64,000 nucleotides of DNA, taken from contig JBBTSM010000006.1 in the NCBI GenBank assembly GCA_038064675.1, forward strand, positions 7,776 through 71,775. Direction: 5' to 3'. This stretch comes from Patescibacteria group bacterium (GTDB lineage: Bacteria > Patescibacteriota > Patescibacteriia > UBA9934). The notes beneath the pieces are model-generated. The model made no database searches. It was not told where the DNA came from and saw nothing but the letters and a program-made list of their open reading frames with translations. Positions 1-64,000 of the stretch are shown here, in pieces. Position 1 is the first letter of the stretch. Each line of letters begins with the position of its first letter. The translations under genes and the position numbers were made by a program.

Positions 1-855
1 AACAATTCCAAGAATCGCCGCAGCTGGTCGGGCAATCTTCATCGACGGAATCGACTTCACCACAAATACCAATGCGAGGCCCACGAACAATCCAAGAAAT
101 GCCGAACGCGATCCCGTCAGCAGCATACCGATGATGAGAACGACCGTGCCGATGCTTGTGATAACCATCATCTTCCGACGAAAAAGCCCCCCTCCGATTC
201 CCCCCATAAATGGGGGGAGAGATTTCACCTGAGCCATGAAGGCCCACCAAGCGAACAGCCCAACACCGAGGAATCCCCCAAATACATTCGGATGCGGAAA
301 ACTTCCATAGGTACGAAGAACGCGCTCACCGCTGGCTGTAAATACGGCATCACCAAGCTGCGAAGCGTCGCGATACGCAAGACCGAGCCATGAGTTCGCA
401 GGCGAAGAACCGCCGAATACTTGAATGAGACCGAGCACGAAGGGTGCAGCCAACGACACGACAAAAGCAAAGAGCAGATGTTTTACACTGACGCGATCAA
501 TGAGAATCGCAACAAAAAGCGCGTACGCAAGGCCAAGATGCGTGACCGTCGACAATGAAAACGCTGATCGATCCGCAAACGCCGTACCAAGAACCGCAAC
601 GATAAGAACAATCCCGCCGAGACGAACGGGAAGCTGACGTTTCGCGTCGATCGTCCACCATTTCCGATCAAGAATACTCCCCCCGATGAGCGCAGCCGCA
701 AGAAGAAGCTCCACCGCATACAAGCTCATCACGCCGAACTCTGTGTGCGCGCCAGCAATGGAAACCTCGCTATACATCCATCGCGTTTGCCACGGCAGAA
801 GAAAGATCGTTATGGACAGGAACAGCGTCGTCCAATTTGGAAAGAAGCGTTTCAT
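1..855 (-). CDS. O-antigen ligase / Wzy_C-like polytopic membrane protein; C-terminus truncated by window edge; alternative start at 777
   Basis: Manual minus-strand translation is open from about 855 to position 1. It gives MKRFFPNWTTLFLSITIFLLPW..., several TM helices and a TGSRSAFLGLF motif typical of O-antigen ligase/polymerase-family proteins. Not in the ORF track because there is no stop codon inside the window. Confidence 0.5.
   Translation of the reverse strand, partial: MKRFFPNWTTLFLSITIFLLPWQTRWMYSEVSIAGAHTEFGVMSLYAVELLLAAALIGGSILDRKWWTIDAKRQLPVRLGGIVLIVAVLGTAFADRSAFSLSTVTHLGLAYALFVAILIDRVSVKHLLFAFVVSLAAPFVLGLIQVFGGSSPANSWLGLAYRDASQLGDAVFTASGERVLRTYGSFPHPNVFGGFLGVGLFAWWAFMAQVKSLPPFMGGIGGGLFRRKMMVITSIGTVVLIIGMLLTGSRSAFLGLFVGLALVFVVKSIPSMKIARPAAAILGIV
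187..222. repeat. GC-rich palindromic element copy (a): cccccctccgattccccccataaatggggggagaga, in-frame inside the O-antigen-ligase-like CDS
   Basis: Seen directly. About 30/34 identical to the copy at 15645-15678. Confidence 0.7.
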
Positions 856-6203: not shown

Positions 6204-6554
6204 CTACCCCACCCCAACGATATGGGTGATTCGTGGGGGCGATTGATCGTATTCAATCGCAATCACGTCGATGCGCCATTCGGATTGGGGGTGATCGGAC
6301 ATGAAATGTTCGGCGACGATGGCGATTTTTCGAAGCTTCGATCGGGTAACAGATTCTTCGGGATACCCGAATTCGTGATCGTTGCGCGCCTTCACCTCGA
6401 CCATGACAAATTCCTCCCCATCTTTTGCGATAATATCGATCTCGCCGAAACGGTTGCGATATTGCGTTTCAATAATCTGAAACTTCTTTGATTTCAAAAA
6501 CGCAGCGGCATCATGCTCAGCTGCGTTTCCAAAAATCCTCCTCTTATCCACCAT
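6204..6554 (-). CDS. YraN-family (UPF0102) endonuclease
   Basis: 116 aa. AAEHDAAAFLKSKKFQIIETQYRNRFGEIDIIAKDGEEFVMVEVKAR matches the YraN family. Confidence 0.75.
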   Translation of the reverse strand: MVDKRRIFGNAAEHDAAAFLKSKKFQIIETQYRNRFGEIDIIAKDGEEFVMVEVKARNDHEFGYPEESVTRSKLRKIAIVAEHFMSDHPQSEWRIDVIAIEYDQSPPRITHIVGVG

Positions 6555-7000: not shown

Positions 7001-7546
7001 CTAGTGACTGTAAATTCTCCCCCAATGATCCCGGCTCGCTCTGAACTGTCCGCATTCCTGGCAACCACCTTCGGAAAATAACCGATCAACCGCGTACGGA
7101 GCAACACGATCGGCGCTATTCGGTGCAACGGCATGACGAGTTTGCGGCTCCCAGTCGACGACAATAATCTGCCCATTCGGGGCAAGCAGACGACGAGCCT
7201 CCGAAACGATCGATGCACGACGACGCGCCGACCACAGCGTGTTAATGAGGAAAATACGATCGAGCGAACCCTGTTCAATGTCGGCCACACCTCCAAACCG
7301 TTCAATGTCTCCTCGGACTGGATACAAGTTCAAAAGCGAGTGCAACGATCGGTGCCCGCGAAGCATCGATAACGCTTCAGGATGAATATCGATAGCAAAC
7401 ACCACACCATCGTCGGCAAGGAATCGCGCTGCTGGCAAAACTAAGTGTCCCGATCCCCCAGCACCAAAATCCGCCACACGATAACCGGGGCGAAGGTTTG
7501 CAATCTTGAGGATTACATTTGCATCGAGTAAGGCGCTACCAGCCAT
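7001..7546 (-). CDS. class I SAM-dependent methyltransferase
   Basis: VADFGAGGSGHL (motif I), FAIDIH and LAPNGQIIVVDW (motif IV region). Confidence 0.65.
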   Translation of the reverse strand: MAGSALLDANVILKIANLRPGYRVADFGAGGSGHLVLPAARFLADDGVVFAIDIHPEALSMLRGHRSLHSLLNLYPVRGDIERFGGVADIEQGSLDRIFLINTLWSARRRASIVSEARRLLAPNGQIIVVDWEPQTRHAVAPNSADRVAPYAVDRLFSEGGCQECGQFRASRDHWGRIYSH

Positions 7547-7549
7547 GTA

Positions 7550-7783
7550 TTAGAAAATAGAGCGAACAAAGCTGCCAATAATGATATCGAAGAGGTTGAG
7601 CGTTACAATGAATCCAAGAATCATCACCGCGATTCCAAGAAGCTTGTAGAAGAATGCGGTTGTACCCAAATGTTGCTCAGCCCATGCCACTGGTCCGAGC
7701 ATGTCTTCAAACCACCGCGTTTTCCATACCATCATCCATCCCATCGCAGTGATGAAGAGGCCAATAAGAATTCGCTGCAACAT
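7550..7783 (-). CDS. small membrane protein, hypothetical
   Basis: 77 aa with two hydrophobic helices; tightly packed behind the methyltransferase gene. Confidence 0.35.
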   Translation of the reverse strand: MLQRILIGLFITAMGWMMVWKTRWFEDMLGPVAWAEQHLGTTAFFYKLLGIAVMILGFIVTLNLFDIIIGSFVRSIF

Positions 7784-7837
7784 ATAGCGCTATTTTATCA
7801 CAAACGAAAAAGAAGCCCGGTCAGGCTTCATTTTCGA

Positions 7838-7920: not shown

Positions 7921-8040
7921 GAAGAGAACGGGTTTATTTGGTCAAGCTTGGACGCACGGCGAGCAAATGTTTCGAGGCGTACTTCTTGGTACGTTGAGAA
8001 ACTTTGCGATGGCGTAAGTTCAAGATTGACCAAATAAACA
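7921..8040 (-). repeat. copy A of a ~100-nt conserved noncoding element (putative small RNA / repeat), between tRNA-Ala and tRNA-Val
   Basis: Its reverse complement aligns with 23343-23450 and 57453-57565 (core GCAAA.TT.CTCAACGTACCAAGAAGTACGCCTCG.AA...TTTGCTC..TGCG). Confidence 0.5.
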
Positions 8041-8048
8041 CGTTCTCC

Positions 8049-14865: not shown

Positions 14866-17520
14866 TTATGACACAAGCGCCGCATGCTCTTTTTGGAGCG
14901 CGGCAAGTTTTTCCTGAAGATCCGCAAGCTTTTGTCGCTCCCCCGCGATCACCTTCTCCGGTGCACGAGCAACAAAATCCGCATTCGCGAGCTTCGATTC
15001 TTGGGCGGCGATGAACTTTGTTGCTTCGGCGATTCCCGATTCGATACGCGCCTTTTCCGATGCCGCATCAACAGCCGGCAATTGCACAAAGATTTGCGCA
15101 GATCCAACCACAATCGGCGTAATCGATTCCGGACGCTCTTCGCCCGAACGAATCGCTTTCACTTTCGTTAAACCGCCGATGATCGATTCCATTCCCGACA
15201 AAACTCCTGCATTTACCATTACAATCGACTCCACATCCTTCGGCAATGTTTTGTGTTCCGAGAGATAATTGCGAATCGCAATCACCGCCGAACACACCTG
15301 ATCAAACGCCGATCGATCCTCCGACGACAATTCGTATTCAACCGTTGGCCACTTTGCGACGATGATCATTCCGGAGTTGAAATTCTTGTAGATTTCCTCA
15401 GTCACGAATGGAGCGAACGGGTGCCAAAGGATGAGCAGGCGTTCGAGAATGTAGAGAAGAACATCGCCCTTCTCGCCCTCGATCTTGGCGATCTCCAGGT
15501 ACCAGTCCGCGAAGTCGTTCCAGGTAAAATCACGCAACATTTCGATGGCGAGCGAGAAGTCGTAACGATCGATGAGTGAACTTACCTTCTTCGCCGTCTC
15601 GCTAAAACGCGCAAGAATCCATCGATCTGCGAGCGTCAGTGACGTCTCTCCCCCATTTATGGGGGAGTTGGAGGGGACGTCTACGTGTCGTGCTCCTCCC
15701 ACATTTCCGATAATAAATCGCGAAATGTTCCACAGCTTGTTCACAAGGTTGCGCGCAGCTTCCACCTTCTCTGTGTAATACCGCGAATCGTTTCCTGGCG
15801 TGTTACCAGAAAGGACGGAGATCCGAAGCGCATCGCAGCCGTATTCGTTGATCACTTCGATTGGATCGATGTTGTTTCCCGATGATTTTGAAAACTTGTT
15901 CCCGTCCTTATCACGCAACAAACCGTGCATGTACGCATTGTTGAACGGAACTTGATTCAACGCATACGAACTCATCAAAATCATGCGCATCAACCAGAGG
16001 TACAAAATCTCATACCCCATCTGGATCCAATTCGTTGGATGGAAGTTCTTGAGATCAGATGTCTTCTCAGGCCAGCCGAGCGTAGAAAACGTCCACGAAC
16101 CGCTTGAGAACCAGGTGTCGAGCGTGTCTTCGTCCTGAACCCAACCATCGCCTTCTGGCCTTGCACCAACAGCAATCTCTTCACCGCGATACCACGCCGG
16201 GATTCTATGACCCCACCAAATTTGGCGCGACAAACACCAATCGCGCAGATTGTTTACGCGATCAAGGTAGAGTTTTGTAAATCGCTCTGGCGTGATCGAT
16301 ACTTTTTGTGATGCATCGCCATTCAATCCTGTCGTCACCGCATCACGCATCAAATCCTTCAACGTCTTTCCACGTCCTGGAATTTCCTTGTTCACGTTCA
16401 GCCACCATTGCGTCATCGGAACCGACTCGATGACGTCGCCATAGCGATCGGACGTTCCAACGTTCTGAATGATGTCCTTTGAGTCTTCGAGAAGCCCTTG
16501 CCCCGAAAGCCATGCAACAACAGTTGCTCGAGCCTTTTCGACGGTTTGTCCAGCAACCAACTGCCCCGCTTCGACAGTCATCTTCCCATCAAGTCCGATC
16601 ACTTGGATAATCTCGATCGGATCCTGCTTCGCCTTCTGCACTTCGTACATTCCAAAGTCGATCGGGCTGTGCGCAGGCGTCACGCCCAGAGCGCCAGTAC
16701 CGAACGATGGATCAACCTCCTCGCTCGCGATAACTTTGATCGTCAATTTCGACCCCGCGAAATCAACATTGAATGTTTTTCCGATGAATGCCGTGTAACG
16801 ATCGTCAGCCGGGTGCACCGCAACAGCCGTATCGCCCACCTTCGTTTCTGGGCGTGTCGTCGAAATCGCAATTGGAAAATCTTTGCTGTATTTGAACGTG
16901 TAGAGAACGGAAGCTCGCTCGATCGTCTCGATTTCGTCATCGGATGACGTCGATTGTCCCTTCACCGACCAATTCACCACCCGGAATCCGCGATAGATAA
17001 GACCATCGTTGTACATTCGCGTAAAAAGCTCATTCACCGCAACGTTTCGCTTCTCGTCGAACGTGTATGCCAAACGGCTCCAGTCGGCGCTGGTTCCCAT
17101 CTTTTTCACCTGGCTCAAAATCGTCGATTTCGATTGCTCGGCAAACTCACGAATCTTTTCAACGAGCTTTTCTCGTCCAAGCTCTTGGCGAGGATTCTTG
17201 ATCCCGTCGGCCATCAACAGTTTTTCCACCTTTGCCTGCGTTGGCAACGCGGCATGGTCGGTTCCCGGAATAAGAAGTGCTTTCTTCCCTAAAAGACGCT
17301 GATAGCGAACCATCGCGTCCATGAGGGAATTTTCCAGCGCATGGCCAAGGTGCAACACGCCGGTAACGTTTGGCGGCGGCATCACGACAGTGAACGCCTC
17401 AGTGGAATCCGTAACATTCGGCAAATTCTCTGGCGTAAAAAAGCCTGAGCTTAGCCAAGATTCGTAAATTCCATCTTCCACCAACTTCGCCTCGTACGCT
17501 TTTGCCATTTCGTTCGCCAT
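14866..17520 (-). CDS. valS: valine--tRNA ligase (start chosen at MANEMAKAYEAK; ORF open to 17583)
   Basis: PPPNVTGVLHLGHALENSLMD and KFSKSSGN (KMSKS) motifs, an editing domain and a C-terminal coiled coil (QEKLAALQKEHAALVS). Confidence 0.9.
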   Translation of the reverse strand: MANEMAKAYEAKLVEDGIYESWLSSGFFTPENLPNVTDSTEAFTVVMPPPNVTGVLHLGHALENSLMDAMVRYQRLLGKKALLIPGTDHAALPTQAKVEKLLMADGIKNPRQELGREKLVEKIREFAEQSKSTILSQVKKMGTSADWSRLAYTFDEKRNVAVNELFTRMYNDGLIYRGFRVVNWSVKGQSTSSDDEIETIERASVLYTFKYSKDFPIAISTTRPETKVGDTAVAVHPADDRYTAFIGKTFNVDFAGSKLTIKVIASEEVDPSFGTGALGVTPAHSPIDFGMYEVQKAKQDPIEIIQVIGLDGKMTVEAGQLVAGQTVEKARATVVAWLSGQGLLEDSKDIIQNVGTSDRYGDVIESVPMTQWWLNVNKEIPGRGKTLKDLMRDAVTTGLNGDASQKVSITPERFTKLYLDRVNNLRDWCLSRQIWWGHRIPAWYRGEEIAVGARPEGDGWVQDEDTLDTWFSSGSWTFSTLGWPEKTSDLKNFHPTNWIQMGYEILYLWLMRMILMSSYALNQVPFNNAYMHGLLRDKDGNKFSKSSGNNIDPIEVINEYGCDALRISVLSGNTPGNDSRYYTEKVEAARNLVNKLWNISRFIIGNVGGARHVDVPSNSPINGGETSLTLADRWILARFSETAKKVSSLIDRYDFSLAIEMLRDFTWNDFADWYLEIAKIEGEKGDVLLYILERLLILWHPFAPFVTEEIYKNFNSGMIIVAKWPTVEYELSSEDRSAFDQVCSAVIAIRNYLSEHKTLPKDVESIVMVNAGVLSGMESIIGGLTKVKAIRSGEERPESITPIVVGSAQIFVQLPAVDAASEKARIESGIAEATKFIAAQESKLANADFVARAPEKVIAGERQKLADLQEKLAALQKEHAALVS
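15645..15678. repeat. GC-rich palindromic element copy (b), in-frame inside valS (encodes VPSNSPINGGETS)
   Basis: Reverse complement tcccctccaactcccccataaatgggggagaga aligns with copy (a). Confidence 0.7.
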
Positions 17521-23342: not shown

Positions 23343-23450
23343 TCCAGTTTGCCGATTTTCGGCTTGCTACGTCGCACATTCGCTCAACGTACCAAGAAGT
23401 ACGCCTCGCGAACTGTGCTCCTTGCGCACCGAAACTCGTCTAAACTGGAA
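23343..23450 (+). repeat. copy B of the ~100-nt conserved noncoding element
   Basis: tttgccgattttcggcttgc...gctcaacgtaccaagaagtacgcctcgcgaactgtgctccttgcgcaccgaaactcgtc. Confidence 0.5.
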
Positions 23451-46723: not shown

Positions 46724-47770
46724 CTAAGATTCCTTTTCCTCTCCGTAATACCCGCGTTCGTTTTCTGGAAGCAGTTCGGCAACCTTCTTCATCACATCGT
46801 GAACACTCTGTCCTTCGCCGAGTACCACGGGTTCGCCCGCTGTCGCGCTTCCCTTGGTGATTCCGACCGGAACAATCGGCAGATCTTTTCCCGTGAGCCG
46901 GCGATATTCACGAGCGATGTGCTCAATGCCACCATACGCTTTTCGCATCTTTCCTCCCTCATACAACCAAAGCCCTTCAGGAAAAAGAATAACCGGCTCG
47001 CCCTTCAAAAGCACGGCGGCTGTAGTCTGTATCGATTCCTGATGAGCGCGCATGGTTTCGCGATCCATCGGCTTCCGATCTCGCTCAATCACTTTTGCGT
47101 AATACGCTTTAGCGCCGCTCGGGGCTCGCTGCAATACTTCTGCCTTCTTTTCCTCTGACAAGTTTCGAAGCGTAGATTTTACCTCGATCGCTCCAATAAC
47201 ATTCAAAAACCATCGTCGCAAGGGGTCTGCCTCAAAGTGCATATCTGCAACAAGCGTATGCGCAGGACGGCCGAGCAGTGCAAGAATTTTATACAGGTCA
47301 AAAAGTCGAGTGTGGTTGCTTACAGCGATACATCCGCCTGTTAGCGGAACATGTTCCCGACCACGGATATGAAAAAGTCCAAGCGCCTCGAAAGCACTAT
47401 AAATGCTTTTCGAGACCCTTTGGAGCGCTCCAGCGAAAAACTGCTTTTCACGAAAACGTTCTGGAAGATTCTTCTCGATGTATGCGTCAACGGAGCTAGG
47501 CTTCGAAGGGACTATCGCCGTGTCTTCGCCAAGCAATCGCTCTCGAACCTTATCCGCAGTATCAAGGTCGCTCTCTCGAGACCGCTCTCTCACCTCTCGT
47601 CCATCAGGAACCTCCGCAACATCGATCGATTCATGGTCACGCCGAATTTCTAAAGCTTCAGCCGATGTCCCGAGCGCCTTTCCTAAATCTTTCTCAGACT
47701 CTTTTGGCATATCAAAGCCCGCTATCGTCCAACAACTCCCCTCACAAATCTCGCAGCTCGATACATCCAA
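46724..47770 (-). CDS. lysophospholipid acyltransferase (PlsC-family, HX4D motif)
   Basis: CIAVSNHTRLFDLY (HX4D) and PVILFPEG motifs of the LPLAT/PlsC family. Confidence 0.7.
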   Translation of the reverse strand: MDVSSCEICEGSCWTIAGFDMPKESEKDLGKALGTSAEALEIRRDHESIDVAEVPDGREVRERSRESDLDTADKVRERLLGEDTAIVPSKPSSVDAYIEKNLPERFREKQFFAGALQRVSKSIYSAFEALGLFHIRGREHVPLTGGCIAVSNHTRLFDLYKILALLGRPAHTLVADMHFEADPLRRWFLNVIGAIEVKSTLRNLSEEKKAEVLQRAPSGAKAYYAKVIERDRKPMDRETMRAHQESIQTTAAVLLKGEPVILFPEGLWLYEGGKMRKAYGGIEHIAREYRRLTGKDLPIVPVGITKGSATAGEPVVLGEGQSVHDVMKKVAELLPENERGYYGEEKES

Positions 47771-48735
47771 TACTTTGGAACGTTCACGGGAATGTCGAAC
47801 GTGCCAGCGGTGGCGTAGATGGAGCCGCCGAAGGCTTTTTTAAACTCGGTGATGCCGGCCCAGGGATGCTTTGCGGATGATCCTTCGGGCGCAATGCCCC
47901 AGAAGTCGTAGCGAATCATCCTGGAGTCGATCGCATCGTGGATAACGAAATCTTGGAGCACATGCGTCGCCTTGAGCTCGCGCATCTGATTGCCCGACGC
48001 ACCGTGAAGATACGTTCGCGTACCAAAAGAATCGATCGTCAGCGTTGCAGCAAGAGGAACCTCGTCTTTCGATGCAATCGCAAGCTTCGCGTGGCACGAT
48101 GGTTCGGCTCCAAGGGATTCGACCATGGATTTGTAGTACGCAATTTCGTGAATAGAAAATGCGTCGCGTTCTGCGGTTTGCTTCATCAAATCCACGAACT
48201 CATCGAATCGATCGATGCCAACGAATTCACAAATAACGCCCTTCTTTACGCCGAGCCTCGTGTTGTACCGAACTCGAGAGTTAAACTCACCGAATACCGC
48301 TTCGTAGCCCTTCGTCAAATCAAGAATCCGCGTGGTTTTTGGATGGGTTTCTTTGGTGGAAACCGATCGTGGAAGCTGCGTAATCGATTCCGTCCGAAGG
48401 TAATCCGTTCCGGCACCGAGCTCGGCGACCAATGCGTCGCGCATCGATTCCGGAGCCGCGTCGCCAATTGGGCCCTTCGGCACGAGCCAGTACGTAATTC
48501 CGAGCGGCGCCCTAAGTTTCATCGCCTGCGCGATACAGACCCCCTCCAACCACTCTCCTCGTCCGGCTCGGGACTCGTCGAGCGCCTTCGTAAGGGGGAG
48601 GGCTATCCTCCGAACCTCTCTTCCCTGACTCTTTTGAAACTCCCCCCACGCAAAACTCTGCAAAAATGCGCCGCTCGTTGGAGCAAAACGTGCGACCAAT
48701 GCATCCCATTCGCGCTGAGAGTATTCTGTCGTCAT
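47722..48735 (-). CDS. FemXAB-family aminoacyltransferase (tRNA-dependent peptidoglycan interpeptide-bridge formation)
   Basis: 337 aa whose block pattern matches FemX-like proteins: FLQSFAWGEF..., PKGPIGD, ILDLTKGYEAVFGEF..., YLHGASGNQ..., DFWGI. Confidence 0.55.
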   Translation of the reverse strand: MTTEYSQREWDALVARFAPTSGAFLQSFAWGEFQKSQGREVRRIALPLTKALDESRAGRGEWLEGVCIAQAMKLRAPLGITYWLVPKGPIGDAAPESMRDALVAELGAGTDYLRTESITQLPRSVSTKETHPKTTRILDLTKGYEAVFGEFNSRVRYNTRLGVKKGVICEFVGIDRFDEFVDLMKQTAERDAFSIHEIAYYKSMVESLGAEPSCHAKLAIASKDEVPLAATLTIDSFGTRTYLHGASGNQMRELKATHVLQDFVIHDAIDSRMIRYDFWGIAPEGSSAKHPWAGITEFKKAFGGSIYATAGTFDIPVNVPKYWMYRAARFVRGVVGR

Positions 48736-49286
48736 ACGTGGCGAGACAAAAGCTTTAACGCAGATTTTACGCGAGATTCTGTGGTTTCGCCAGTAATATC
48801 TTTTGCGATTCCAGACACATCAGCCTTTGAATACCCAAGGCTTTCGAGTGCGTCGGCAACATCCGATTGCACCGATCCTGACTCAGTCTTGTCCTCGAGG
48901 ACGAGCACACCTTTCAAATCGAGAATGATCTTTTGCGCCGTCTTCTTCCCTACTCCCGAAATCGCGTTAAAAAACGCCACGTCGTCTGTATGAATATGGC
49001 GAATGATGTCTTCCGCCGATCCTGAAGCCAAAATCTTCTGCGCAAGCTTCGGCCCAACACCAGACACGCCCATGAACTGCTCGAAGAGTGCTTGATCAGA
49101 TCGATCACCGAATCCGTAGAGATCGTGCTTGTCTTCGCGAATAATCTCGCTGATCCAGAATCGAATCCGATCGCCAACTTCGCATTTCTGTCGCGCAACA
49201 AAAACACGATACCCGATGCCGTTCACTTCCAAGAGAACGCCGTCGGATTCAAGCCCAGTAATTGTTCCGTCTAAATAGGCGATCAT
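48732..49286 (-). CDS. ruvA: Holliday junction branch-migration protein RuvA
   Basis: MIAYLDGTITGLESDGVLLEVNGIGYRVFV (domain I OB fold), HhH pairs (FEQFMGVSGVGPKLAQKIL; ISGVGKKTAQKIIL) and C-terminal domain III. Confidence 0.85.
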   Translation of the reverse strand: MIAYLDGTITGLESDGVLLEVNGIGYRVFVARQKCEVGDRIRFWISEIIREDKHDLYGFGDRSDQALFEQFMGVSGVGPKLAQKILASGSAEDIIRHIHTDDVAFFNAISGVGKKTAQKIILDLKGVLVLEDKTESGSVQSDVADALESLGYSKADVSGIAKDITGETTESRVKSALKLLSRHV

Positions 49287-49424
49287 ATCTTAATTTTATA
49301 GGACTTTCTCATTTGTGACTATTTTCGGTGCGGAGCGAGGAGAACTCGCGAAACGTACTTCGTGTGTACGTAGAGCGATTCGACGATGCGACAAGCCGAA
49401 AAGAGGCCAAATGAGGAAGTCCTA

Positions 49425-57452: not shown

Positions 57453-57565
57453 CTTTCTCATTTGGCCGATTTTGGGCTTGCCTCATGGCAAACTTGCTCA
57501 ACGTACCCATGAAGTACGCCTCACAAGATTTGCTCGATGCGCACCCAAACTCGTCACAAATGAAA
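57453..57565 (+). repeat. copy C of the ~100-nt conserved noncoding element, in the leader of the transketolase N-subunit gene
   Basis: tttggccgattttgggcttgc...gctcaacgtacccatgaagtacgcctcacaagatttgctcgatgcgcacccaaactcgtc. Confidence 0.5.
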
Positions 57566-57639
57566 AACCTTCTGTCAGATCGGTTCAAAAATCACTCGCA
57601 ACACTGCGAGTGATTTTTGTTTCTTGATATACTTCGGCT

Positions 57640-59501: not shown

Positions 59502-59506
59502 CTCGA

Positions 59507-59540
59507 CCCCCTCCTTACTCCCCCTTGGTAAGGGGGAGAG
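59507..59540. repeat. GC-rich palindromic element copy (c): cccctccttactcccccttggtaagggggagag, upstream of the DUF559 gene
   Basis: Same architecture (CCCCTCC-NN-CTCCCCC-loop-GGGGGAG) with a different loop. Confidence 0.65.
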
Positions 59541-59561
59541 TTATCGACTGAATCTGATCTC

Positions 59562-59948
59562 ATGACACGGATATACAATCAGGAATGGAGTATAGAACGA
59601 CGAAAATCCATGCGATCAAACATGACCGGACCGGAACAGTTGCTATGGAAAGCGCCGAGAGGAGAATCGCTCGGTATAAAGTTTCGACGACAATTCGGCA
59701 TTGGTCCATATATCGCGGATTTTTACTCTCCAAGGAATAAGCTCGTCATCGAAATCGACGGAGGATCACACGCACACCCAAATGCACGAACCTACGATGA
59801 CGAGCGTGACGCTTTCATGATCGGTCTTGGAATAAACGTTTTGCGTTTCTCAAATCACGAAGTCCTTTCAAATATCGACGATGTTCTTCTTCGAATTCAG
59901 GAGGCGATACCCCTCCCCCTTGCCAAGGGGGAGTCGGAGGGGGTTTAG
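59562..59948 (+). CDS. DUF559 / Vsr-like endonuclease-domain protein
   Basis: 128 aa: LLWKAPRGESLGIKFRRQFGIGPYIADFYSPRNKLVIEIDGGSHAHPNARTYDDERDAFMIGLGINVLRFSNHEVL matches the DUF559 pattern. The C-terminal 12 aa are encoded by a palindromic repeat copy. Confidence 0.75.
   Translation: MTRIYNQEWSIERRKSMRSNMTGPEQLLWKAPRGESLGIKFRRQFGIGPYIADFYSPRNKLVIEIDGGSHAHPNARTYDDERDAFMIGLGINVLRFSNHEVLSNIDDVLLRIQEAIPLPLAKGESEGV
59911..59945. repeat. GC-rich palindromic element copy (d), inverted relative to (c), forming the 3' end of the DUF559 CDS
   Basis: ccctcccccttgccaagggggagtcggaggggg; its reverse complement begins ccccctccgact... Confidence 0.65.
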
Positions 59949-59965
59949 AATGTTACAATACGCGC

Positions 59966-62214: not shown

Positions 62215-62248
62215 CACCCCTCCTCTACTCCCCCTAGGGCGTAGAGGC
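62214..62248. repeat. degenerate palindromic element copy (f) immediately after the 60955-62214 CDS stop
   Basis: cccctcctctactccccctagggcgtagagg: same left half, diverged right arm. Confidence 0.4.
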
Positions 62249-63646: not shown

Positions 63647-64000
63647 ATGTTCTTTTTCTGGATACTTTTCGTCATCGTAGGCACCATGGCATGGGGCTCC
63701 ATTCTTGCGGCTCCGTGGGTGCCAACCCTTTCGGCGCAAAGGAAGTTGTTGGTTGATAGTCTCGTCATACCTCCCCCCGACCCCCTCCTTCGAAAGGAGG
63801 GGGAGAAATCGGTGACCATTTACGATCTCGGCTGCGGATCCGGATCGATTCTCTTCGAATTCGCCGATCGGTATCCAAACGCTCGTTGCATCGGCTACGA
63901 CGTTGCGCTTCTTCCCCTTTTCATCGGAATGATGGTGAAACTTCGTCATCCGATAAAATATAAAAACGTTTCACTCCGATTTGGAAATTTCTTCAAGAAA
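63647..64000 (+). CDS. class I SAM-dependent methyltransferase with N-terminal TM helix (3' end truncated by window)
   Basis: Manual translation: MFFFWILFVIVGTMAWGSILAAPW...SVTIYDLGCGSGSILFEFADRYPNARCIGYDV (motif I). A palindromic repeat copy encodes PPPDPLLRKEGEK in-frame. Confidence 0.5.
   Translation, partial: MFFFWILFVIVGTMAWGSILAAPWVPTLSAQRKLLVDSLVIPPPDPLLRKEGEKSVTIYDLGCGSGSILFEFADRYPNARCIGYDVALLPLFIGMMVKLRHPIKYKNVSLRFGNFFKK
63770..63806. repeat. GC-rich palindromic element copy (e), in-frame inside the partial methyltransferase CDS
   Basis: cctccccccgaccccctccttcgaaaggagggggagaaa: perfect ccccctcctt/aaggaggggg stem. Confidence 0.6.

Follow-up and report, generated by a model that had tools for sequence, protein, structure and literature searches.

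Short GC-rich hairpin repeats inserted in-frame into Patescibacteria genes and their association with DUF559 endonuclease genes

Short mobile G+C-rich palindromes that can reside in-frame in protein genes include the GC clusters of yeast mitochondria and the double-hairpin elements of fungal mitochondria. On the bacterial side, the Rickettsia palindromic elements (RPEs) were reportedly described by Ogata et al. in 2000. RPEs are palindromic repeats lying in-frame within functional genes, as summarised in PMC3733652, and in-frame palindromes of the REP type, some of them in tRNA synthetase genes, have also been reported outside Rickettsia (PMC3733652). REPs and REPINs combine with RAYT transposases into what are termed REPtrons (PMC3116915, PMC3337134, PMC3733652). 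Against these systems we here set a family of short hairpin repeats from a 64-kb stretch of a Patescibacteria genome (hereafter the window), one pair of which brackets a gene for a DUF559 endonuclease.

A sequence-only reading of this DNA had singled out a block at 187-222 as matching 15645-15678 at about 30 of 34 bases in the opposite orientation. This holds: the alignment of the two, copies A and B (Table 1), comprises 30 matches, 2 mismatches and 2 single-base gaps located within C and G runs, and includes an exact common 16-mer, CCCCCATTTATGGGGG, which with up to 2 mismatches is found at these two sites only, against 0.01 expected from shuffles. Both copies are also in-frame as had been claimed, with the Wzy_C and ValRS reading frames running uninterrupted across them: the - strand Wzy_C gene translates copy A as ..KSLPPFMGGIGGGLFRRK.. 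and the ValRS gene (14866-17520, -) translates copy B as ..HVDVPSNSPINGGETSLTLADRW.., and the public gene calls agree in giving intact proteins (P0121 for Wzy_C and P0001 for ValRS). What had been called a 34-nt palindrome is palindromic over an 18-20 nt core only (CTCCCCC-loop-GGGGGAG), with both the spacer and the tail, CCCCCTCC, falling outside the palindrome; likewise, both members of the supposed pair are real but they are not alone, for further copies lie at 48540, 59507, 59910, 63773 and 62216. On folding, the hairpins form as predicted, with energies of -9 to -13 kcal/mol and z of -1.9 to -3.9.

Table 1. Copies of the hairpin repeat, the genes that carry them and the DUF559 cassette, in window coordinates
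Feature	Position	Strand	Description
Copy A	187..222	+	CCCCCCTCC-GATT-CCCCCC-ATAAAT-GGGGGG-AGAGA; translated in reverse by the Wzy_C gene (-), giving SLPPFMGGIGGG
Copy A, block as aligned	187-222	reverse complement	TCTCTCCCCCCATTTATGGGGGGAATCGGAGGGGGG
Copy B	15645..15678	-	GTCCCCTCC-AAC-TCCCCC-ATAAAT-GGGGG-AGAGA; VPSNSPINGGE in ValRS
Copy B, block as aligned	15645-15678	+	TCTCTCCCCCATTTATGGGGGAGTTGGAGGGGAC
Copy C	59507..59540	+	intergenic, 5 nt past the DUF4349 stop; left-hand member of the inverted pair that encloses DUF559
Copy D	59910..59943	-	right-hand member of the pair that encloses DUF559; reads CCCCCTCC-GAC-TCCCCC-TTGGCAA-GGGGGAG as reverse complement
Copy E (variant)	63773..63808	+	CCCCCC-GA-CCCCCTCC-TTCGAAA-GGAGGGGG-AGAAA; in-frame in the methyltransferase as IPPPDPLLRKEGEKS
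Copy F (long form)	48540..48603	+	CCCCCTCC-AAC-[36-nt inner module]-TTCGTAA-GGGGGAG; translated by the FemAB gene (-) as ALPLTKALDESRAGRGEWLEGV
Copy G (degenerate)	62216..62248	+	intergenic; ACCCCTCC-TCTA-CTCCCCC, 3' arm replaced
Wzy_C/O-antigen-ligase family gene (PF04932)	1..777	-	truncated by the window edge; carries copy A
valS (ValRS, 884 aa)	14866..17520	-	carries copy B
FemAB-family gene	47722..48735	-	carries copy F
DUF559 (Vsr-like PD-(D/E)xK) endonuclease gene, 128 aa	59562..59948	+	PF04480
Cassette C-DUF559-D, 464 nt	59502..59965	.	from the DUF4349 stop to the transketolase start
SAM-methyltransferase-like gene	63647..64000	+	truncated by the window edge; carries copy E

The consensus unit consists of CCCCCTCC, a spacer of 3-5 nt, CTCCCCC, a loop of 6-7 nt and GGGGGAG, with a stem of 7-10 bp; the 64-kb window contains no fewer than six or seven such units. 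Copies were located by regular expressions and explicit hairpin scans rather than by a covariance model; a MAFFT alignment of 48 copies loses register on the 3' arm owing to variable loop lengths. The pattern CCCCTCC-N3-5-TCCCCC-N6-8-GGGGGAG matches the window at 4 sites, and 100 shuffles yield no match. Copies A and B have the ATAAAT loop in common, and degenerate copy G forms a different 7-bp hairpin directly past a stop codon. Four copies sit inside coding sequences (those of Wzy_C, ValRS, FemAB and the methyltransferase), one (D) constitutes the C-terminus of the DUF559 nuclease and two (C, G) are intergenic, giving 5/7 within coding sequence. The host genes read the unit in differing frames and orientations (SLPPFMGGIGGG, VPSNSPINGGE, IPLPLAKGESEGV and PPPDPLLRKEGEK), and hence the repetition is at the level of DNA and not of protein. 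A putative common 3' extension past the hairpin (TCACCTGA-like) was discarded as too weak; in ValRS it overlaps native codons. As in the earlier reading, no named family could be assigned to the element: an Rfam search of the whole window at the gathering score returned six tRNA matches only, and a literature search (for DUF559, in-frame palindromes in Patescibacteria, Vsr-like proteins with repeats and the motif string) gave no match to it. The one literature match to CCCCCTCC is the GI REP of P. fluorescens, a hairpin that has a G-rich first arm and is unrelated.

Comparison with orthologues shows that the intragenic segments are insertions, missing from relatives, including ones whose proteins are 78-90% identical. 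The net gains are all multiples of three (27, ~30 and 33 nt, and 14 codons) and appear as clean gaps. For ValRS, the orthologues P0002, P0004, P0006 and P0009 (86-87% identity) read ..GARHIESVEPKTLADKW.. against ..GARHVDVPSNSPINGGETSLTLADRW.. in the window, and at the DNA level valS differs from that of locus L121 by a single clean 27-nt gap spanning CCTCCAACTCCCCCATAAATGGGGGAG. Similarly, the SLPPFMGGIGGGLF segment is missing from 13 or more of the aligned Wzy_C orthologues, which have identities of roughly 65-84%; the gap in the DNA is ~30 nt, or about 9-10 extra codons. Copy F adds 14 aa to FemAB relative to 12 homologues, and copy E corresponds to a 33-nt gap in the methyltransferase relative to L208; in L207 the same methyltransferase site is filled by another, unrelated hairpin element. 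Some of these insertions are inherited by sister lineages: L124 has the ValRS copy with an identical hairpin loop and 1 mismatch overall, and the Wzy_C copy is also present in P0122 and P0124. The inner module of copy F recurs in the Wzy_C insert of L205. Copy numbers differ among relatives, with none in ~40 kb of GCA_943359525 and 1 in 22 kb of GCA_943354605, as against 4 strict and 3 loose copies in the window. The filled and empty sites compared (ValRS, Wzy_C, methyltransferase) displayed no target-site duplication. GACGTC, which flanks copy B, was considered as one and rejected, since L124 has GACGCC/GGCGTC at these flanks, pointing to an outer stem that extends the palindrome.

The elements probably survive in-frame in tolerant loops. 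In a structure model of ValRS with a mediocre mean pLDDT of 63, of which only the well-modelled C-terminal domain was therefore used, the insert lies in a coil (608-629) between helices, with pLDDT <50 at 620-625. This same loop was struck independently by hairpin-type insertions in other Patescibacteria (P0012, P0025, P0058, P0089), and hairpin-type peptides are found in at least 9 of the 29 ValRS orthologues inspected.

The resemblance to RPEs suggested by the sequence-only reading is thus borne out in behavior, but not in length. As with RPEs, the insertions lie in-frame in functional ORFs and are missing from orthologues (ValRS, Wzy_C, FemAB, methyltransferase); they add short peptides in tolerated places, are inherited by descendants and occur in a small, gene-dense host. 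In contrast, RPEs are ~100-150 nt with a long hairpin, as opposed to units of 27-42 nt with a 7-10 bp stem, presumably have a different sequence, belong to Rickettsiales rather than Patescibacteria and have no described associated nuclease, whereas here an inverted pair brackets DUF559. With REPs and REPINs the repeat shares its dispersed, multi-copy occurrence, an imperfect palindrome of 20-40 nt, a conserved tag that adjoins this on one side without being palindromic, and a single small enzyme gene flanked by inverted copies. It differs from them in: (i) its tag, (A)CCCCCTCC rather than GTAG or CGTC (GTAG occurs in copy B alone, 5 nt upstream and inside native ValRS codons); (ii) the flanked gene, which codes for a PD-(D/E)xK Vsr-like DUF559 protein and not an HUH Y1 transposase; (iii) the spread of its motif across phyla, while REPs are usually species-specific; and (iv) its location in the window, mostly in genes (5/7), REPs being mainly extragenic. 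MITEs, which span 70-300 nt, end in inverted repeats and duplicate their target site, are unlike these 27-42 nt units with no duplication found, and the mitochondrial GC clusters and double-hairpin elements occur in eukaryote organelles, have unrelated sequences and are not known to have a DUF559 partner.

DUF559 is a very common and large family with a solved structure and a mostly unknown function. The protein in the window matches PF04480 with 100.2 bits against a curated cut-off of 20.6, and profile searches recover PDB 3hrl (1.7e-38) and 3r3p, that is I-Bth0305I (7e-4); D53, E64, D66 and H70, the catalytic D/E/D/H positions, are invariant in alignment A2. Its last 12 codons (reading IPLPLAKGESEGV up to the stop) are themselves copy D. 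Copies C and D form an inverted pair with 42-nt arms, 81% complementary and 352 nt apart. In three relatives without the cassette, the DUF4349 stop and the transketolase ATG are just 3 nt apart, and since this empty site is a 3-nt spacer without a hairpin, the gene and its hairpins most simply came together. DUF559 belongs to the same PD-(D/E)xK clade as the I-Bth0305I/EDxHD homing endonucleases and Vsr (3r3p, 1cw0; PMC3424549), and the presence or absence of the cassette at an otherwise conserved, fixed genomic site is what homing endonuclease genes display; unlike these, DUF559 is free-standing between genes rather than in an intron or intein, and is bounded by hairpin repeats. A characterised DUF559 protein, VsrA of Caulobacter, acts in a context of methylation-linked repair or damage (PMC12907096).

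The association of hairpins with DUF559 extends beyond the window. At 3 of the 4 genome loci with both the motif and such a gene, the motif lies ≤56 nt from the latter, and across 80 metagenomic DUF559 loci the specific motif has 10 matches ≤250 nt from the gene and 0 in 253 kb elsewhere. At these 80 loci the broader class of C-first homopyrimidine hairpins reaches 3.56/kb near DUF559 versus 0.147/kb elsewhere, a 24-fold enrichment, other GC-rich hairpins being merely 1.3-fold enriched; the exact tailed subtype is present at 6/80 only. The flanks vary in orientation relative to the gene: the tails face away from it in the window but towards it in L099 and L096, and at some loci the flanking copies are direct repeats, not inverted ones. 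DUF559 proteins with a like hairpin arm type are more similar to each other (52.1% versus 46.1% identity; 0/1000 permutations), which common ancestry could explain. Loop closure involves 1.50 additional pairs, compared with 0.55 +/- 0.065 for shuffled sequences, and a C precedes the pattern in 115/123 cases among the matches listed. The motif consensus recurs from Bacteroidota to Proteobacteria, so the element spans phyla and is not lineage-specific; in other phyla the motif is rarer in stop-free spans than are random positions (49% versus 82%). Some of the GC-rich matches among those listed from the genome scan could be due to chance.

Taking these observations together, we consider it very likely that the hairpin is a mobile REP/RPE-like repeat inserted in-frame. 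DUF559 is a candidate for the enzyme that moves it, which we rate at somewhat less than an even chance; mobilisation and nuclease action being predictions, this link is purely associative. The complete account, a dispersed REP/RPE-like repeat together with the DUF559 proposal, is in our view the likely one, and we envisage it as follows. The DUF559 nuclease and its flanking hairpins would travel as one unit, with the layout of a RAYT gene between REPs, and solo hairpins at other genomic sites would be seeded by the nuclease itself or when the breaks that it introduces are repaired. In a genome that is ~90% coding, most insertions would be expected to hit genes, and retention would be limited to insertions that bring no stop codon, preserve the reading frame and land in tolerant loops. 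The C-runs and G-runs would then yield Pro- and Gly-rich peptides, which are probably compatible with loops.

The main competitor to this account has the hairpins spreading by other means, such as a RAYT encoded elsewhere or slippage in replication or repair, and the DUF559 cassette as a separate selfish gene that lands preferentially in or beside hairpins. It would accommodate the 116 of 120 motif loci in other genomes that, among the matches listed, have no DUF559 gene within 8 kb, as well as the variable flank orientation, and IS elements targeting REPs are known (PMC3733652, PMC8450116). It fares worse with the empty site of the three relatives, where the 3-nt spacer has no hairpin, with an enrichment particular to the C-first class (24-fold versus 1.3-fold) and with the lack of any copy in which a GTAG or CGTC tag adjoins the hairpin; we regard it as unlikely, if still a serious contender.

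Considerably less probable is that the hairpins are retained because their RNA or DNA structure serves the host, for instance in stabilising mRNA, in pausing or in binding proteins, and owe their spread to selection rather than to selfish mobility. The co-variation of the loop-closing pairs does indicate that structure is maintained, copies C and G lie directly past stop codons like many REPs (PMC3733652), and insertions last through speciation. However, positions vary among close relatives, a sister genome carries the unrelated hairpin at the same methyltransferase site, no Rfam family matches, and copies C and G are followed by no T-run and are thus not terminator-like. As for the common sequence being convergent native coding sequence or an artefact of assembly, the source genome is a MAG, and the Pseudomonas ValRS segment GVNGEPVEL aligns with PINGGETSL (cf. 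INGGETSL). E. coli ValRS presumably carries a like NGGE motif at this place. Nevertheless, this reading is contradicted and we give it almost no credence: close relatives (86-87% identity) are without exactly these 27 nt, which led us to reject a native loop in ValRS; the element is translated in opposite orientations into unrelated peptides in Wzy_C and ValRS; and L124, L205, L206 and P0122, which were assembled independently from different samples, show the same inserts.

To return to mobile repeats with DUF559 as their candidate enzyme, in-frame palindromes as such were already known, and what appears new is the family to which the element belongs, its occurrence in this host lineage and its link to DUF559. 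DUF559 thereby gains a testable genomic role, the proposal being of a nuclease gene that has one specific class of hairpin at its borders and a statistical association with that class. If the enzyme recognises the hairpins, both the repeats and the family would be explained, and the two would represent a new type of repeat-enzyme pair. More speculatively, and with slightly less conviction than we attach to DUF559 as the mover of the hairpin, DUF559 nucleases may be the partner enzymes to hairpin repeats that have a C-rich first arm and span phyla. The two would then make up a second REP-RAYT-like system, in which a PD-(D/E)xK nuclease of the Vsr-like or homing-endonuclease-like sort takes the place of the HUH transposase, and in gene-dense Patescibacteria its solo hairpins would regularly supply essential proteins, ValRS among them, with new Pro/Gly-rich loops. 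Hairpin insertions are frequent in Patescibacteria, and protein annotation and alignment in this group should expect such segments, which at the one methyltransferase site derive from two different hairpin families in two related genomes.

A dispersed hairpin repeat of about 30 nt, with C-rich and G-rich arms, has at least six members in the window, or seven with a degenerate copy, as recovered by repeat finding together with a scan of all C5/G5 runs. The sequence-only reading had singled out two of these, copies A and B, as a 34-nt palindrome matching at about 30 positions in reverse-complement orientation. Both sequences were found at its coordinates, and their alignment comprises 30 matches, two mismatches and two one-base gaps, the gaps falling inside homopolymer runs. 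Their common exact 16-mer, CCCCCATTTATGGGGG, has copies A and B as its sole window sites even when up to two mismatches are allowed (0.01 expected from dinucleotide shuffles), and the looser gapped pattern CCCCTCC-N3-5-TCCCCC-N6-8-GGGGGAG has four window sites versus none in 100 shuffles. The term palindrome, however, fits only the hairpin: the unit runs from a non-palindromic tail, CCCCCTCC, through a spacer of 3-5 nt to the hairpin proper (CTCCCCC, a loop of 6-7 nt, GGGGGAG). Folded as single strands, the copies form the expected structure, with energies of -9 to -13 kcal/mol (z -1.9 to -3.9); the loop ATAAAT is common to copies A and B, and TTGG(T/C)AA to copies C and D. Because host genes translate the element in either orientation and in differing frames, with unrelated peptides as the outcome, conservation lies in the DNA and not in the protein. 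There is also a long form: the Wzy_C insert of the homologous protein P0124 (locus L205) consists of copy A's element and an inner module of ~36 nt, and since this module is homologous to that of copy F, the long form counts as a composite subfamily, the second of the element, with members in two genes and two genomes.

Features of the window: element copies, genes, antisense frames and the second repeat
Feature	Position	Strand	Remarks
Copy A	187-222		in-frame, Wzy_C; translated as ..SLPPFMGGIGGGLF..
Copy B	15645-15678		in-frame, ValRS; translated as ..VPSNSPINGGETS..
Copy C	59507-59540		intergenic
Copy D	59910-59943		final 12 codons of DUF559 gene (IPLPLAKGESEGV, stop)
Copy E	63773-63808		in-frame, methyltransferase (IPPPDPLLRKEGEKS)
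Copy F	48540-48603		long form; in-frame, FemAB gene (ALPLTKALDESRAGRGEWLEGV)
Copy G	62216-62248		degenerate; intergenic
Wzy_C/O-antigen-ligase family gene	extends past left edge	-	PF04932
ValRS gene	14866-17520	-	884 aa
DUF559 ORF	59562-59948		bracketed by copies C and D; PF04480, 100 bits
Open frame	1-393	+	antisense to Wzy_C gene; spans copy A
Open frame	47938-48993	+	antisense to FemAB gene; spans copy F
~115-nt repeat	7924-8047	-	intergenic
~115-nt repeat	23345-23450	+	intergenic
~115-nt repeat	49305-49419	-	intergenic
~115-nt repeat	57453-57567	+	intergenic

The intragenic copies are lineage-specific in-frame insertions, which were afterwards inherited. The frames are open across copies A and B, as had been claimed, and the public gene calls for this organism (a Patescibacteria-group MAG), P0001 for ValRS and P0121 for Wzy_C, are the same intact proteins. 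Alignment with orthologues reveals segments in ValRS, Wzy_C, FemAB and the methyltransferase without counterpart in relatives. ValRS orthologues P0002, P0004, P0006 and P0009 (86-87% identity) have GARHIESVEPKTLADKW in place of the window's GARHVDVPSNSPINGGETSLTLADRW, and the DNA differs from that of locus L121 by one 27-nt gap, covering CCTCCAACTCCCCCATAAATGGGGGAG; in L124, from a different assembly, this insert recurs with a single mismatch and an identical loop. The Wzy_C segment is absent from at least 13 aligned orthologues (~65-84% identity; a gap of ~30 nt against L122) and present in P0122 and, in longer form, P0124. The FemAB protein has 14 more residues than 12 homologues, and the methyltransferase shows a 33-nt gap against L208, where the site is empty. 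At copy E's site the methyltransferase orthologue of L207, a sister genome (~6230-6270), instead has another hairpin element, ATCCCCGC-CTAC-GCGGGGAT (peptide LDPRLRGDNG); thus, one permissive site was used by two element families. Net gains at the intragenic sites are all multiples of three. Relatives carry no copies in ~40 kb (GCA_943359525) and one in 22 kb (GCA_943354605). Naive longest-ORF calling at the Wzy_C and FemAB loci picks the wrong strand, owing to the long antisense frames.

In an AlphaFold model of ValRS the catalytic half is poorly resolved and the anticodon-binding domain confident (pLDDT 80-95). A coil at 608-629, flanked by helices 583-607 and 630-651, contains residues 615-625, at copy B, and the pLDDT of 620-625 is under 50. 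The equivalent loop of T. thermophilus ValRS (1gax) is 11 residues shorter. That of Pseudomonas ValRS (4xkz), GVNGEPVEL, briefly resembles the window's PINGGETSL, which might be read as a native loop; we treat the likeness as coincidental because close relatives lack the segment. The Wzy_C insert, between two hydrophobic stretches and adjoining basic residues, would be a short loop joining membrane helices. Independent hairpin-type peptides occur in the same ValRS loop of other Patescibacteria (P0012, P0025, P0058, P0089) and elsewhere in the protein (P0012, P0013). Further such peptides, VIPAQAGIQ, VIASEAKQS, LPLTNGESARGSEAPRERRAEGV and KTKSLPLSEGELEGV, follow the conserved AWYR motif or lie at other places in ValRS orthologues P0023, P0031, P0013, P0012 and P0116, which suggests in-frame insertion by several families of hairpin repeat in Patescibacteria. 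In P0010 a ~64-residue cysteine-containing insert (FCLRCNKDAF...CSVCNGEAL) replaces the relatives' short AWYRGEE segment; it looks like a zinc-ribbon type, unrelated to the hairpins.

The DUF559 gene bounded by copies C and D was itself inserted. The spacing of the DUF4349 stop from the transketolase ATG is 3 nt in three relatives (transketolase 84-90% identical), as against 464 nt in the window comprising copy C, the DUF559 gene and copy D; this junction therefore marks the cassette, with its hairpins, as an insertion. Copies C and D are inverted relative to each other, their 42-nt arms being 81% complementary and separated by 352 nt. The D, E-x-D and H positions are conserved in the encoded protein, and the DUF559 profile matches PDB entries 3hrl (1.7e-38) and 3r3p (7e-4), the latter being the mobile-intron homing endonuclease I-Bth0305I; VSR, DUF559 and I-Bth0305I constitute one PD-(D/E)xK clade (PMC3424549). 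Caulobacter VsrA, a characterised DUF559 protein, is a Vsr-like nuclease with a link to cytosine methylation (PMC12907096), and hence a repair or restriction role is possible for the window enzyme. A gammaproteobacterial DUF559 ORF (L019, oriented 7310-7786) has the C-terminus PAPHPNPLPEGRGS, which may be another GC-rich hairpin family translated at the gene end, like copy D. Small nuclease-type ORFs also occupy non-syntenic spots in relatives, namely a GIY-YIG ORF near the transketolase operon (L208, 1552-1848) and a LAGLIDADG_3-like ORF, a faint match (L121, 19017-19709; L122, 116-808); there is a hint here of several free-standing endonuclease genes in the clade.

Beyond the window, C-first hairpins are associated with DUF559 genes across many phyla. 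A gapped-pattern scan of one genome per species gave at least 120 loci, those listed coming from Proteobacteria, Bacteroidota, Chloroflexota, Planctomycetota, Acidobacteriota, Spirochaetota, Omnitrophota and Patescibacteria. Among the matches listed, features left unspecified by the pattern recur: the pattern is preceded by C in 115 of 123 cases, and the spacers are Y-R-R-C or R-R. Their loops contain 1.50 extra closing pairs versus 0.55 +/- 0.065 in shuffles. Some GC-rich matches may be due to chance, and hence a match to the pattern does not by itself establish each case. Outside Patescibacteria the listed matches are mainly intergenic, as REPs likewise are, and depleted in stop-free spans (49% versus 82% for random positions). 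A DUF559 gene lies within 8 kb of only 4 of the 120 listed loci; in three of these four the motif is at most 56 nt from it, and L096 has copies on both sides. In the reverse test, on 80 metagenomic DUF559 loci, the specific motif had ten matches in the 37 kb lying no more than 250 nt from the gene, versus none in the remaining 253 kb. C-first homopyrimidine-arm hairpins, found near the gene in 58 of the loci, reach 3.56/kb there versus 0.147/kb elsewhere (24-fold), whereas other GC-rich hairpins are only 1.3-fold enriched; perfect GC-rich hairpins occur within 200 nt in 47 loci, on both sides in 21. DUF559 proteins with the same flanking arm type are 52.1% versus 46.1% identical (0 of 1000 permutations), to which shared ancestry could contribute.

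We propose that the DUF559 nuclease and its flanking hairpins would constitute one mobile unit, arranged like a RAYT gene between REPs, from which the solo hairpins would derive by nuclease action at hairpins or repair of breaks. The main rival holds that something else spreads the hairpins and that DUF559 cassettes merely target them, as would suit the variable flank orientation around DUF559 genes and the large number of solo copies distant from them; however, the empty site in the three relatives is hairpin-free, which argues for joint arrival as a single unit. Since ORFs cover ~90% of the window, most insertions would hit genes; selection would then spare only stop-free, frame-keeping insertions in loops, to which the Pro- and Gly-rich peptides from C/G runs would be suited.

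The likeness to Rickettsia palindromic elements (RPEs) raised from the sequence holds for behaviour, which intragenic REPs also share, but not for family membership, the unit being too short against the longer RPEs. In-frame palindromic repeats are thus not new, being known from RPEs and from intragenic REPs, the latter already reported in tRNA synthetase genes (PMC3733652). REPs carry a GTAG or CGTC tag absent from the window element, and the gene they flank is a RAYT, whereas here it is a PD-(D/E)xK nuclease; the element belongs to neither family. That it has no named family was upheld: literature searches yielded no account of this hairpin class, and there was no Rfam match. We found no literature description of a DUF559-repeat link, and the pairing may be a new lead. 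The ~115-nt repeat is unrelated to the C/G hairpin element and has no Rfam match at gathering score; its copies are ~77% identical, with a conserved core CTCAACGTAC-CAnGAAGTACG, and tRNA genes adjoin two of the four.
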